Virus record (IMG/VR): IMGVR_UViG_3300027969_000042
Coordinates: 64,001 to 128,000 of that record
Length of the DNA: 64,000 nucleotides
DNA from: a virus
Direction: 5' to 3' (one strand)
The position numbers and the translations under genes are program-made. Each line of letters opens with the position of its first letter. Within the stretch, counting starts at the first letter, position 1. The notes under the pieces are model-generated. The model saw only the letters and a program-made list of their open reading frames with translations. It ran no database searches and had not been told where the DNA came from. Positions 1,254 through 64,000 of the stretch are shown piece by piece.

Positions 1254-3332
1254 TTATGAATTTCTTTCTTTTAATTCTTTTAAAAATTTCAAAGTTTCTG
1301 CTTTAGTTTGATCACTACTCATTCTAGCAATTTCTACCCATTCAAACAAATCCTTCCATTCTTTTTCATTGTATTTCTTATAAACACCACTTTTCTCAAA
1401 GTACTCTAAACATTCTGTTCTACCATAGTCAGTTGCCCATTTAGTAATCATACCTCCCTTATTTAAAAGTGTTTGAACAACATCTTTTCTTTCAAGGTAT
1501 TTCATCATCATTAAGAATGATTCCCAATATGGTTCTCCTTTTTTCTTAGCAGCTGGATAACCAGGCATTTGTTCGTAATTACCTTGGAAACATTTTCTAA
1601 GTGGCATATTATGGCTAAACAATGGATCTAAACCTGCAGTTAAACAATAATCTAATGCTTCTGTATCAGGAACAACACTTTTAAATACATCACTAGTCAT
1701 CTCTGAACCATAATCAACTAAAAGTTTAATCATATTAAGATTGGTTGCTTTTGAAATAGGAGCATCTTTTCCCTTTGCTAAGTTAGGTAATCCACCTAAT
1801 TTTAAAATCAATTCTACTTTTTCATAGTTATCTTCAGATACTGCATTAAATAAACATTTTGCATTATCCTTATTGATGTCTGCACCATATTCAGTAACAT
1901 ATTCAATAATTTTTGCCATACTTAAACCTGGCTTAACAATTTCTCTATTGGCTTCTTTAGCTTTTTGTCTTTTTCTAATTTCTTCACCATCCATTGGTAA
2001 GAAGAATCCCCATAGATCTTTATCAATATCATATTCTTTCTCCCATTTTTTTAGTATACCTTTAAATTGTTCTGTACCAACAGAGTGATCTGGTCTATTG
2101 TGACAAGCTCTAACTCTTTTTCCTGGTTCAATTGTAATACCAATTGTTGAAAAATCATCTCTTAATGGGACGTGGAAGTCATAAATATAATATTGTTTAT
2201 TATCATGATTTTCTACATATGAATCCCATTGATATTTAGTATCTTTAATACAGTGTGAAGTGTGTGCATTTACTATTTGATTTGCGGCAAATGAATTTAC
2301 TTCAATTATAAGAATACCATTTTCATTAAATACTTTTTCAACACCTGCTGCTCCTAATCTTGAGTTACAAGTAGTAATCAAATCATTAAATTTAGTAAAT
2401 CCATCCATCTCATAAGATGATAAGTGACCATTTGCTGCAATAATGAAAGCGTGTATATTTTCATATCTTCTTAGTGTTGATTGATAAACTATCTTACCAA
2501 ATGTTGGATTTGGAGTACCATCTGGTTTTAAAGGTCTTGTATCTGGTGACATTCTACCAAAGAAATCATCCCAAACATGTTTTTTCTTTGCCTCATCAAC
2601 TGTACCATCATCTTTTAATCCTAATTGTTCAAAACCAACTGCAACAGATAAAAATCTACTCTTATTTAAGTCAGAAGCTTCATCATATGACTTTTTTAAC
2701 TCTGGAGTTAAAGTATCATACATTTTTTTAATTTTTCTTGATTCCTCTAATCTATCTAATCCATCAGTTAGTAACTCTATGTTATTAAACACATTTTCAT
2801 TTATAAAATTGGCATCAAATTGTATTTTAGTAAAAACACCTTTATCTTTTTCGATTGTAAGATTTTGTAAAATATCTTTATTTTGTAATAATCTTCTATA
2901 AACTACTGATAAATCTTCTAATGGAACATTTTCAAAATAGTAGAAGTAAGTAAAGTTAGATAACCAACCGATATTATCTCTATCTAATTGAAATTCTTTT
3001 TCACCTTTTGGACCTTTAACTTTTGTCTTTAATGTTCTTACTGCAGTAAATTCAGGTGTCTTATCAAATGTTTTAAGAAGTTCTGGAGTAACTGAAATAT
3101 CTCTCAATTTCATCTTAATTCTCTCTCTTGCTTCTGGTTGGAAGTCAATCAATCTAACTGATCTAATTTCTTTATGATCAATTTGTAAACCTAATTCACC
3201 TTGAAGTAAATTAAGTTCTTTTGCTGCAGTTAGTAAAGTATATCTTTCTTTTAAGAATTTCTTAGCTTTGTCTAAGTTCTCATTTAAAGTATCTGTGTTT
3301 AAAAACTGGTTATATTTAAAAAGCTTCATCAA
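1254..3332 (-). CDS. Putative virion-internal protein with C-terminal ankyrin-like repeats
   Basis: N-terminus MMKLFKYNQF...LNE (tag); GADINKDNAKCLFNAVSEDNYEKVELILKLGG is ankyrin-like; central HCIK..YQWDSY segment resembles the WCLK..HWDNY segment of 36212-37585. Confidence 0.55.
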   Translation of the reverse strand: MMKLFKYNQFLNTDTLNENLDKAKKFLKERYTLLTAAKELNLLQGELGLQIDHKEIRSVRLIDFQPEARERIKMKLRDISVTPELLKTFDKTPEFTAVRTLKTKVKGPKGEKEFQLDRDNIGWLSNFTYFYYFENVPLEDLSVVYRRLLQNKDILQNLTIEKDKGVFTKIQFDANFINENVFNNIELLTDGLDRLEESRKIKKMYDTLTPELKKSYDEASDLNKSRFLSVAVGFEQLGLKDDGTVDEAKKKHVWDDFFGRMSPDTRPLKPDGTPNPTFGKIVYQSTLRRYENIHAFIIAANGHLSSYEMDGFTKFNDLITTCNSRLGAAGVEKVFNENGILIIEVNSFAANQIVNAHTSHCIKDTKYQWDSYVENHDNKQYYIYDFHVPLRDDFSTIGITIEPGKRVRACHNRPDHSVGTEQFKGILKKWEKEYDIDKDLWGFFLPMDGEEIRKRQKAKEANREIVKPGLSMAKIIEYVTEYGADINKDNAKCLFNAVSEDNYEKVELILKLGGLPNLAKGKDAPISKATNLNMIKLLVDYGSEMTSDVFKSVVPDTEALDYCLTAGLDPLFSHNMPLRKCFQGNYEQMPGYPAAKKKGEPYWESFLMMMKYLERKDVVQTLLNKGGMITKWATDYGRTECLEYFEKSGVYKKYNEKEWKDLFEWVEIARMSSDQTKAETLKFLKELKERNS

Positions 3333-3344
3333 TTTAATTTATTT

Positions 3345-5069
3345 TTATCTTCTTGTATGTTGGTTTTCGTTTATTCTTTCTATTTCTTTTAAATAGATTT
3401 CTGCGCCTTCTTTAAGAAACTTAGTAAGTCTTTCAACTTCCTTGTAATCCCCTTCATCTAAAGCAGCATCTACAAGTTCTTGAATATCTTTTTGTCTCAT
3501 TTTTGATAGATCTTCATCAGAATATGTTCCGTCATCTTCCGCTGGAGTTTCTTGTATACCTTCTTCTCCAGCCATTTCAGGCACTTCTGGTTCATCATAA
3601 TTAGTTTTAGGTCCAAATCGTTGTTCCATCTCCCATTCTCTTAGAGAACGTTCGTAATCTTCTTCAGTCTCAACAACATGATCAATAAGTTTCTCTACTA
3701 CTTTTTTCGCTTCTGATTGATTAAATCTTTCTGCGTTTATAAAGAATACTAATTTACCTGCTTCCATCTTTTTATCAAAAACAGAAAATAAACTATTGAA
3801 AACTTCTAAGAATTTATTATCAGATAAAGCAAGATCCGCATCTTTCTTAATAATAGCACCTAGATCTTTATCAGTCTTAGAAATTTCTATTGCTTTTGCA
3901 GTTAGTTTATCTTTATCATTGGCTAAAAGTCTAAATATTCTAGTTCTCATTTGTTTATACTTTTGAGAATCTTTACAAGCATTTACAAAATCATTAAACA
4001 TTGCTTGTGCTGTTACACCATATCTAAAATCTTGTGCCTCATCCATAAATGATGAAGTTGCTGCTTTTACTTTTTTAGCAAACTCTTTATCTTTTTTAAT
4101 AGCAGCAGATTGAATCAATAAGTAAATACCTTTAACTGTTTCGTGAATCAACATTGGGAAATCAACACCAACTGCTTTAATAGTAATTTTATTAAAATTT
4201 TGGTTTTCTTTCAATAGTTCAATTGAAAATACACTATTATTTACACTCTCCCAAGTAACATCTGTTGCACCAGCCATTCCACCTGGATTATTACTCATCA
4301 TTGATGCTTTATTGGCAACTGGAATAACCCAGTCCATTTTATCAGCTGTATCGGACATATCTGACCAAATTCTTAAAATTCTACCACCATTTGCACCAAA
4401 TATTTGTTGTAAACCATTTTCAACAAGTGGTGAGAACTTAATAATATCTTTAGTTGCTTTACCTTCACCTTGAGTCAACATATTAAGAATCTTCTTCTTT
4501 AATGAAGCAGTCAAAACATTACCAGTTATATCTTCTGGTTCTTCCGTATTTTCTTCAGCACCTTCAACACTAGAGCAAGATCCATCTGCACAATCATCAT
4601 CTTGTTGATCTTGTTCAGTTTGTTCTTCTTCATCTTCTTCGTGAGTATCATCTGCACGTGGTGGTCTAGCATTTTGTGGAACATCTCTTAAATCAGAGAT
4701 TTGTCTTATAACTTCATTAGGATTTACTAATCTTATATCAAGTTCAACTGGTTTTGCAGATGATTCAAGTATTTCACCGTACTCATCCATAATAACATCT
4801 TTTGCTAAGTTTTGAAGTGCATCAAGTCTTGCTTGCATTTGTTCTCTACCTAATTGTCTACCATCTGGTCCTTGCATCATTAGTTGCATAGATTGGTTCA
4901 TCAATTGTTGAAATTGTGGCCAAATATTTCTCATTTGGCTTTCATCATCAATTCTTACACCTAAATTTCTTCCGGCTTCTTCTTCTGAATTTCTCATGAA
5001 ATCATCTGGAATACCTCTATTTCCTCTTAAATCGATTTCTTCTTTTATAAAGTCTGAAAATTTTCTCAT
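3345..5069 (-). CDS. Hypothetical protein, putative head-internal (tagged)
   Basis: 574-aa ORF; MRKFSDFIKEE start; acidic stretches; FPMLIHETVKG segment of unknown function. Confidence 0.5.
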   Translation of the reverse strand: MRKFSDFIKEEIDLRGNRGIPDDFMRNSEEEAGRNLGVRIDDESQMRNIWPQFQQLMNQSMQLMMQGPDGRQLGREQMQARLDALQNLAKDVIMDEYGEILESSAKPVELDIRLVNPNEVIRQISDLRDVPQNARPPRADDTHEEDEEEQTEQDQQDDDCADGSCSSVEGAEENTEEPEDITGNVLTASLKKKILNMLTQGEGKATKDIIKFSPLVENGLQQIFGANGGRILRIWSDMSDTADKMDWVIPVANKASMMSNNPGGMAGATDVTWESVNNSVFSIELLKENQNFNKITIKAVGVDFPMLIHETVKGIYLLIQSAAIKKDKEFAKKVKAATSSFMDEAQDFRYGVTAQAMFNDFVNACKDSQKYKQMRTRIFRLLANDKDKLTAKAIEISKTDKDLGAIIKKDADLALSDNKFLEVFNSLFSVFDKKMEAGKLVFFINAERFNQSEAKKVVEKLIDHVVETEEDYERSLREWEMEQRFGPKTNYDEPEVPEMAGEEGIQETPAEDDGTYSDEDLSKMRQKDIQELVDAALDEGDYKEVERLTKFLKEGAEIYLKEIERINENQHTRR

Positions 5070-5070
5070 A

Positions 5071-63303: not shown

Positions 63304-63332
63304 AAGAAAGAGGATTTAGTCCTCTTTTTTTT
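63304..63332 (+). terminator. Intrinsic terminator
   Basis: AAGAAAGAGGA-TTTAG-TCCTCTTTTTTTT. Confidence 0.8.
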
Positions 63333-63373
63333 ATAAATAAAATTTAATATATAATAAAAAATATTATAATACT

Positions 63374-64000
63374 ATGTTATTAAAATTTAATAATTTCATC
63401 AAAGAAAGTGTTTCTGGTAAAGGAACTTTACTTTTTTATGCATTTGATTGGGATGACAATATACTAAACATGCCAACTGAAATTATGGTACAAACCGAAG
63501 ATGGTGAAGAAGTTGGTATGAGTACCGCAGACTTTGCGGTTTATCGTTCTAAAATAGGAAAAGAAGATTTTGAATATGATGGGAAAACTATTGTTGGTTT
63601 AGACTATAATACAGCATTTAGAAACTTTAGAGATATTGAAGATCCAGAAATATTCAAAAAAGATGTTGCCAAAGCATTACAAATGGAGGCATTTGCACCT
63701 GCTTGGGAAGATTTTATTGAATGTTTAACTAATGGTTCTGTATTTGCTATTATTACTGCAAGAGGACACGAATCAGAAGGTATGAGAAAAGGTGTTGAAT
63801 ATATTATTGATAGTTTAGATCAACAAGATAAAGAGAAAATGCATGATAGTTTACTTATGTTCCTTCAACTTTTTGGTAAATCAAGAAATGAAGAAAGTTA
63901 TGAAAGTATTACAAATTTCTCTCAAAGTGAATTAGTTAAAAACTACTTAGATTTATGTCACTTTGTTGGTGTTTCTGCACCTTCAAGAGGTGGTTCACCT
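63374..64000 (+). CDS. HAD-superfamily phosphatase-like protein, truncated by the window end (not in ORF track; tagged)
   Basis: Manual translation: MLLKFNNFIKES...YAFDWDDNIL...AIITARGH...; open to 64000. Confidence 0.75.
   Translation, partial: MLLKFNNFIKESVSGKGTLLFYAFDWDDNILNMPTEIMVQTEDGEEVGMSTADFAVYRSKIGKEDFEYDGKTIVGLDYNTAFRNFRDIEDPEIFKKDVAKALQMEAFAPAWEDFIECLTNGSVFAIITARGHESEGMRKGVEYIIDSLDQQDKEKMHDSLLMFLQLFGKSRNEESYESITNFSQSELVKNYLDLCHFVGVSAPSRGGSP

Follow-up and report, generated by a model that had tools for sequence, protein, structure and literature searches.

A recurrent N-terminal peptide resembling the T4 capsid-targeting sequence in a probable fragment of a huge phage genome

Why do many otherwise unrelated proteins of one phage begin with a similar short peptide? 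This question is raised by the window analyzed here, a stretch of 64,000 nucleotides corresponding to bases 64001-128000 of a 177,545-bp IMG/VR virus record (IMGVR_UViG_3300027969_000042; 29% G+C). A first-pass annotation of the window had noticed such a peptide (hereafter, the tag) and proposed that it acts like the capsid-targeting sequence (CTS) of phage T4, loading a large cargo of proteins into the head. The core of this idea came through all of the in-silico tests that we ran, and we lean, by a modest degree, towards the view that the peptide is a T4-type CTS that loads proteins into the head.

The capsid protein encoded by the record is 71% identical to that of LR745206.1 (634,780 bp), 70% identical to that of LR756502.1 (642 kb) and 53% identical to that of the 735-kb LR756501.1, whereas its identity to the Lak-phage capsid proteins and to that of Tenacibaculum phage PTm1 is only 29%. 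Large genomes of the LR745206 type are the 'Mahaphage' of Al-Shayeb et al. 2020, with predicted Bacteroidetes hosts (PMC7162821). Because its nearest relatives by capsid protein are Mahaphage genomes, the record is most likely a fragment of a larger, Mahaphage-type huge-phage genome; it probably represents about a quarter of the genome, as the nearest complete relatives are 634-735 kb. We judged the CheckV completeness of 74% to be misleading, given the size of these relatives. A megablast search of the window against a phage collection gave no match, and IMG/VR holds more than 220 contigs related to the record.

Occurrence of the tag at protein N-termini

The tag is 8-13 residues long, counted from Met1, with the overall consensus [IL]-K-x-[YF]-x-x-[FY]-(hydrophobic)-x-E. 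It occurs as type A, M-K-[YH]-[LI]-K-x-[FY]-[EN]-[ES], and type B, M-[IL]-K-K-[YF]-x-[EQ]-F-[ILV]-x-E; the two have in common [IL]-K-x-aromatic-x-x-aromatic, followed by the hydrophobic-x-Glu end. We scanned the 180 open reading frames (ORFs) of the record with a strict pattern, M-[KR]-[YHNFIW]-[LIV]-K-x-[FYLI], and those of the record and of the window (61) with two position matrices at a cut-off of 10 bits. The matrices were trained on relatives only, with identical N-termini removed, to avoid circularity.

The strict pattern opens 17 of the 180 record ORFs, as against a mean of 0.10 (maximum 2) for shuffled N-termini and none of 834 internal methionines. With the matrices, 33 of the 180 record ORFs and 14 of the 61 window ORFs reached at least 10 bits (shuffled means, 0.23 and 0.08, respectively). 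A profile scan against shuffled N-termini had been set beforehand as a test, and by this measure the tag is not a shuffle artefact; matches located within proteins are some 200-fold less frequent than N-terminal ones. For other comparisons the record was divided into 42 tagged and 138 untagged ORFs. In LR745206, 131 of 930 ORFs match loosely (shuffled mean, 26), with every 50-kb bin represented, and at 80 IMG/VR loci surrounding the capsid gene 12% of the ORFs are tagged. In other words, the tag is found on about a fifth of the ORFs of the fragment and on about one in eight ORFs of the complete 635-kb relative.

After removal of the first 18 residues, no two tagged proteins were mutually related (BLASTP, E<=1e-3), which rules out paralogy as the source of the common start. 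The carriers diverge fast: 15 of 38 had no match in LR745206, compared with 33 of the 142 remaining proteins. NrdA, DnaB, the helicase, the polymerase, the Ro60-like protein, ClpP and the large tail/baseplate ORFs are all untagged, just as the first-pass annotation had reported. The same matrices gave no score of 10 bits or more in genome segments of PTm1 (0 of 62 ORFs), T4 (0 of 64) and HTVC008M (0 of 47). The possibility that the tag is common to T4-like phages as a whole, or to Bacteroidota phages rich in A+T, was rejected, because it is absent from PTm1, from HTVC008M, from 40 kb of T4 and from Lak-B1, in which TAG was read through.

Selection on the tag as a peptide

The hydrophobic-x-Glu end follows the tag in 34 of the 42 tagged proteins of the record, whereas it occurs in 45 of the 138 untagged ones (shuffles: mean 19, maximum 27), and it is present in 103 of the 131 loosely tagged LR745206 proteins. 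Overall, about 80% of carriers have it, whereas the figure is 33-38% for other proteins and 46-48% for shuffles. Synonymous codons are chosen in the tag just as they are in the gene bodies, so that the tag is selected as a peptide and not as a DNA element. Tags are found 4 nt past a promoter-like motif, 20-30 nt past it, or inside operons where no motif is present. The gene at 35736..36215 is an example of the latter: its start and the stop of the gene upstream overlap, and since no promoter motif stands ahead of it, its tag is independent of that motif. A nucleotide-level element is thus ruled out by codon usage and by independence from the promoter motif. Among orthologs the residues vary and the pattern is kept, often while the next 60-170 residues are no longer alignable, and protein families are either wholly tagged or wholly untagged.

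A 130-aa protein with an NFACT-R domain (PF05670; RNA-binding, of the ribosome-quality-control type), whose gene is kept immediately downstream of that for the capsid protein in the majority of relatives, illustrates how freely the two forms are exchanged. Across its 32 orthologs the tag ranges in length from 8 to 13 residues and takes the type A, the type B or a hybrid form; the last tag glutamate never varies, and in every case the conserved [SG]-K-K-D-K-F-P body begins right after it. In the AlphaFold model, residues 1-14 have pLDDT values below 50 and the blocks from residue 21 average 84-95; therefore, the tag is predicted to be a flexible add-on to the NFACT-R body. On some contigs this protein is read as a single ORF with the upstream gene, with the tag at the junction.

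A weaker line of evidence is that [LIF]-x-E is mildly depleted in the bodies of tagged proteins (observed/expected, 0.93 and 1.02 versus 1.09 and 1.13), which fits the capsid-targeting model.

Similarity to the T4 capsid-targeting sequence

The T4 CTS is M-K-T-Y-Q-E-F-I-A-E (PMC8442874). Amber-suppressor work has assigned its residues 4 and 7 to targeting and residues 8 and 10 to processing (PMC9026906). In the type B logo, conservation is strongest at the columns of these same four functional residues; two of these columns, the aromatic ones, were set by the pattern used for the search. In type A the aromatic pair is retained, with its register shifted. The T4 CTS scores 9.1 bits on the type B matrix (random peptides, P=7e-4) and falls in the top 0.006% on a matrix from the tags of this phage.

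Head genes and the putative capsid propeptide

The head module lies outside the window, at about 155-168 kb of the record, and encodes a portal protein (phrog_213), a 730-aa protease protein, the capsid protein and two small tagged proteins. The genes for the latter two are interleaved with paralogs of an M28-like peptidase (phrog_4191), two of the three paralogs being located in this way (Table 1). The capsid protein belongs to the T4 gp23 family (PF07068 Gp23, E=1e-27). Residues 1 to 160-200 of the 730-aa protein match annotated gp21 proteases of cyanophages, HTVC008M and CP220 (tblastn, E down to 1e-24); they also match phrog_207 and, weakly and below the cut-off, PF03420. A sequence search with the capsid protein and the protease against solved structures gave no match. 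The tag, its N-terminal specificity, its selection at the peptide level, the interchangeability of its forms and the T4-type head machinery are thus established here.

The protease protein also contains 10.6 tandem 14-residue (42-bp) repeats, Y-S-E-Y-[ILV]-A-E-N-L-D-K-N-I-x, followed by an Asp/Glu/His-rich stretch. A matrix of the N-terminal tag, covering the aromatic to the P1' position, was run blind over the proteome's 51,554 internal windows, and 10 of the 40 best-scoring ones fell in these repeats; an earlier internal scan, whose matrix took in the basic residue ahead of the aromatic, had not picked them out. The 76 protease orthologs carry 9-13 tag-like units each, mostly 11, and the repeats are also present in the 735-kb phage, while PTm1 has different repeats and no tags. 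Judged from its sequence, the protease-fused repeat array is probably a scaffold.

The putative capsid propeptide ends in ...Y-A-E-F-H-S-I-N-E, which is nearly invariant in relatives (H-Q-I-N-E in two). This I-N-E is the last hydrophobic-x-Glu in capsid residues 1-160, such sites clustering in residues 1-43 only, and the N-terminal 55 residues are conserved. In the window, residues of about 20-57 of the tagged ORF 31409 align to capsid residues 45-93 (45% identity, E=6e-5). Because the residues after its tag match the capsid segment after the propeptide, the tag of this ORF, on the alignment, stands in place of the predicted 43-residue capsid propeptide. A copy of the propeptide and N-arm of the capsid protein (35% identity, E=3e-16) is also found as a stand-alone 108-aa gene elsewhere in the record.

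A model for loading, and the points against it

How would such a peptide work? We propose that the flexible N-terminal leader takes its protein into the assembling prohead core, where it would probably join the tandem tag-like repeats fused to the gp21-type protease. The tag would amount to one unit of the scaffold's own repeat and could co-assemble with the protease-scaffold core during shell formation. The protease would then cut after each hydrophobic-x-Glu, by which the scaffold would be dissolved and the cargo freed. Core binding, cleavage after the glutamate, persistence of the cargo in the mature head and its injection along with the DNA are steps that we infer, as the packaging, cleavage and injection in the first-pass annotation had been.

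Because about a fifth of the proteins begin with a peptide that matches the T4 tag at its key positions, giant phages of this kind probably pack a very large and varied protein cargo. Retention of the cargo in the mature head together with its injection with the DNA is, in our overall estimate, a serious possibility that stops somewhat short of being probable. More tentative still is the full reading, which we put forward with some doubt, that the Mahaphage group (634-735 kb) and its relatives load more than 100 proteins, about one-eighth of the proteome, via a leader that mimics the scaffold repeat, and that these proteins, among them enzymes of RNA repair, of cyclic-nucleotide degradation and of the cell wall, enter the host ready-made, together with the DNA. 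Clear carriers in LR745206 include a T4 Rnl1-type RNA ligase, a CCA-adding-type nucleotidyltransferase and a fusion of a 2H-phosphoesterase (Acb1-like) with a DEDD exonuclease, in all of which the recognized domains begin at residues 30-77. RNA ligase, nucleotidyltransferase and phosphoesterase activities are of the takeover or anti-defence type, and they suit delivery at infection without proving it. Part of the tagged set may be core filler that is expelled.

Several points weigh against the capsid-targeting reading. The clade is uncultured, so that packaging and cleavage rest on inference, and the closest cultured relatives, PTm1 and HTVC008M, as well as Lak, lack the tag, which leaves no cultured proxy among the phages examined. 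The AlphaFold model of the protease domain has a mean pLDDT of 41, and its fold is not confirmed; no gp22 homolog was found. The likeness of the protease repeats to the tag was noticed post hoc, and the repeat units are not independent. Placement of the T4 gp23 cut site on the capsid protein is ambiguous, the MAFFT and BLAST placements disagreeing. The cutting rule is borrowed from T4, whereas in relatives such as phiKZ and SPN3US the cut follows [SAG]-x-E. The carriers are acidic, with a median pI of 4.9 versus 5.6 and only 12-13% of them above pI 8.5, unlike T4's basic internal proteins, and the small, highly basic, DNA-associated cargo type represented by T4 IPI-III is not matched by the carriers. 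A load of more than 100 cargo species would be without precedent. The enzymes named in the first-pass annotation have also fared unevenly: among those proposed in the window only GH108 passes the Pfam threshold, the other calls being mostly sub-threshold (DHH, ankyrin and one HAD), and the second HAD protein gave no match at all. As to the ferritin-like call, ORF 5341 encodes a DUF5856 protein.

Alternative explanations

Could the peptide serve another purpose? One candidate is an expression device, in which the first codons aid initiation on A+T-rich, often leaderless messages, or in which a cassette of promoter plus codons spreads by recombination. The promoter-like motif does often end 0-9 nt before the ATG, and the tag codons are all A+T-rich. 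We nevertheless consider this quite improbable: synonymous codon use is the same as in the gene bodies; the tag occurs equally at 4-nt spacing, at 20-30-nt spacing and without a motif in operons; orthologs alter the residues yet hold the pattern; PTm1 and Lak, Bacteroidota phages that are just as A+T-rich, have no tag; and the terminal glutamate would be left unexplained. Even less credence can be given to a recognition leader for a modifying enzyme, with one maturase of the radical-SAM type serving many precursors. A radical-SAM gene is present in LR745206, as a 299-aa ORF within about 7 kb of several tagged genes, but this nearness is uninformative because tagged genes occur in every 50-kb bin. 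The 177-kb record, for its part, has no radical-SAM gene (PF04055) despite its 33-42 tagged genes, and the tag is composed of lysine, aromatic residues and glutamate, and shows no pattern of Cys, Ser or Thr targets.

A short linear motif recognized by a different common partner, such as a Clp-type degron, a chaperone-docking site or a signal for import into a compartment, would require no link to the capsid. The phage encodes ClpP, the tag is a disordered N-terminal extension, and one class of ClpX N-terminal signals starts with Met-basic-hydrophobic-hydrophobic, which we take as a lead only. Such a motif would leave unexplained the invariant glutamate followed by a small residue, the tag-like repeats in the head protease protein, the likeness to the capsid propeptide with the exchange of tag for propeptide, and the match to the four functional residues of the T4 CTS; we regard it as unlikely, if less so than the two explanations above. 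Closer to the preferred reading is an assembly-only core, in which the tag brings proteins into the prohead, but most carriers are filler that is degraded and expelled before DNA packaging and is not injected. Gp22, gp67 and gp68, which belong to the core of T4, are degraded and expelled. The tagged proteins are acidic, like those expelled proteins; an Asp/Glu-rich tail is found both in T4 gp67 and in a tagged 195-aa head-module protein; and three of the four recovered tagged families lie within 10 kb of the capsid gene, although only that neighbourhood was sampled in the relatives. On the other hand, folded enzymes (GH108 here; the RNA ligase, nucleotidyltransferase and phosphoesterase/exonuclease of LR745206) make poor filler, the carriers are spread over the whole 635-kb genome, and their bodies are mildly depleted, not enriched, in cut sites. 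We therefore hold an exclusively assembly-related role to be unlikely too, and marginally more so than a motif for another partner. For these reasons, loading by a T4-type CTS is the reading that we retain.

Tagged genes of the window and their upstream sequences

All 19 genes quoted in the first-pass annotation are present (Table 1); on the minus strand, the number quoted there is the low coordinate, and the tag is encoded at the high end. Most of the quoted tags were borne out, whereas those of 5341, 6247, 17615, 23022 and 36212 are weak variants (2.7-6.1 bits).

Table 1. Genes with the tag in the window, and other features of the record (positions without prefix or other label are window positions)
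Position	Strand	Length (aa)	Score (bits)	Feature	Remarks
1254..3329	-	691	15.3	Tag, type B, K-[FY]-x-x-F form	Tag at high-coordinate end; LR745206 ortholog also tagged; ankyrin match sub-threshold only
3345..5069	-	574	14.7	Tag, type B, ends I-K-E	Ortholog tagged with other sequence; no Pfam family
5071..5259	-	62	17.8	Tag, type B, ends F-T-E	TAATATATA 23 nt upstream
5341..5862	+	173	5.2	Weak/doubtful tag	DUF5856 protein (PF19174, E=1.4e-16)
6247..6564	-	105	4.9	Weak tag variant, ends F-F-E then S	LR745206 ortholog starts in same fashion
17615..17914	-	99	6.1	Moderate tag, type A, ends L-F-E	Fits strict pattern
23022..23804	-	260	3.6	Weak tag variant	No Pfam family; TAATATATA 4 nt upstream
23889..24476	+	195	20.7	Tag, type A	Top score in window; ortholog alignable only from residue 94 onward, tag nonetheless kept
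28641..28985	-	114	18.4	Tag, type A, ends F-E then S	
29037..29378	-	113	20.3	Tag, type A	Hydrophobic segment after tag
31409..31912	+	167	16.6	Tag of 12 residues, ends F-F-E	Followed by capsid-N-arm-like stretch
32574..33560	+	328	14.7	Tag	GH108 lysozyme domain, residues 153-250 (PF05838, E=6e-13)
34984..35736	-	250	19.3	Tag, type A, ends F-N-E	Ortholog tagged
35736..36215	-	159	18.3	Tag, type A, ends L-F-E	
36212..37585	-	457	2.7	Weak short tag form, ends L-N-E	Fits M-K-Y-I-K; ortholog's form shorter still
40526..42046	-	506	11.5	Long hybrid tag, ends I-K-E	DHH sub-threshold only (E=0.003)
42082..42864	-	260	12.3	Tag, type A, ends I-N-E then A	Ortholog alignable only from residue 179 onward, still tagged
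62295..62945	+	216	16.9	Tag, type A, then D-x-D-x-T	HAD_2 sub-threshold only (E=0.027)
63374..64000	+	384 in full record	16.8	Tag, type B, I-K-E then S	Exceeds window; full protein without Pfam family
15650-17098	-			Ro60/TROVE-like RNA-binding protein (phrog_850)	Untagged
61575-62234	-			ClpP (PF00574, E=3e-67)	Untagged
61108-61569				C-terminal motif example	
L001:2293-2544				C-terminal motif example	
L002:3387-3611				C-terminal motif example	
L002:4842-5168 (record 21341-21667)		108		Copy of capsid propeptide and N-arm	Ends in C-terminal motif
L006:9359-10636				M28-like peptidase paralog	
L006:11256-12632				M28-like peptidase paralog	
L003:17711-18904				M28-like peptidase paralog	
L006:12666-13058 (record 158465-158857)		130		NFACT-R domain protein	Tagged
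L006:15816-16259 (record 161615-162058)				Repeat array of protease protein	

In the protein of 29037..29378, the segment after the tag ends in a lipobox-like A-T-A-C, an arrangement reminiscent of SPN3US gp47, which in its mature form opens with a membrane helix.

The first-pass annotation had further stated that most tagged genes follow a promoter-like motif. This is roughly right, as W-ATATATA occurs within 80 nt upstream of 27 of the 42 tagged genes and of 51 of the 138 untagged ones. Tagged genes share this motif with the large structural genes (47-64% versus 21-37%), a further weaker line that fits the capsid-targeting model. The most enriched upstream word is AATATATA (56 genes; for example, upstream of 31409, 32574 and 62295), and its spacing to the ATG is bimodal, at 0-9 nt or 20-29 nt; to judge from these distances, the short-spacing class implies leaderless or near-leaderless messages. 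A separate class has the Bacteroidetes-type TAnnTTTG.

We also observed a second common motif, R-x-x-[KR]-[IL]-x-x-[IL]-[LIFV], in the last 16 residues of 8 of the 180 proteins, mostly small ones (mean of shuffles, 0.13; four internal matches); the stand-alone copy of the capsid propeptide is one of its carriers.

Significance and comparison with known systems

Neither the CTS of T4 nor the ejection of large proteomes by phiKZ-type phages is new. Our search of the literature on the CTS in phages found nothing on huge phages and no paper describing these tags, and Al-Shayeb et al. do not mention such a tag (PMC7162821). If the capsid-targeting reading is true, then huge phages use the head not just to contain DNA but also to deliver a proteome that is large and swappable, which would help to explain how phages with very long DNA entry survive host defences before gene expression. 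It would also assign a cellular fate to more than 100 genes of unknown function per genome, and candidates for injected effectors could be listed, by a simple rule on the sequence, for metagenomic phages in their hundreds. Moreover, it would provide a natural, short and portable packaging tag, together with a model, testable in T4 too, in which the tag copies the repeat unit of the scaffold itself.

The T4 CTS is the closest known counterpart. Like it, the tag is a leader of about 10 residues at the extreme N-terminus with aromatics three apart and then [IL]-x-Glu; it is carried by otherwise unrelated, fast-changing proteins, and a gp21-family protease and a gp23-family capsid protein are encoded. 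Unlike T4, in which about 10 proteins carry the sequence, this phage has 33-42 on the fragment and its complete relative more than 100. Its tag has two interchangeable N-terminal forms, its putative cargo is acidic and includes large enzymes, its protease is fused to a tag-like repeat array in place of a separate gp22, and the system is known here from sequence alone.

In the phages phiKZ, 201phi2-1 and SPN3US, a gp21-like protease processes the inner-body and ejection proteins (Thomas et al. 2012; PMC5694885, PMC7411985). They too are giant phages that pack dozens of proteins (SPN3US has more than 50 head proteins, of over 40 MDa) and remove propeptides after x-Glu. However, they belong to another lineage, their propeptides are about 80-160 residues long and family-specific with no common short tag, and they follow the [SAG]-x-E rule. 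The cargo-loading peptides of encapsulins are likewise short, disordered and transferable terminal peptides that bring unrelated enzymes into an HK97-fold shell. Unlike the tag, the encapsulin peptide is usually C-terminal, binds the shell protein and stays uncleaved, and the shell holds no DNA and injects nothing. Finally, the Dar head proteins of phage P1 are anti-defence proteins that are packed in the head and injected (PMC9024508), as is proposed, and only proposed, for the phage studied here. Their incorporation, in contrast to loading by one common short tag, is hierarchical and proceeds via specific Dar partners (PMC9024508).

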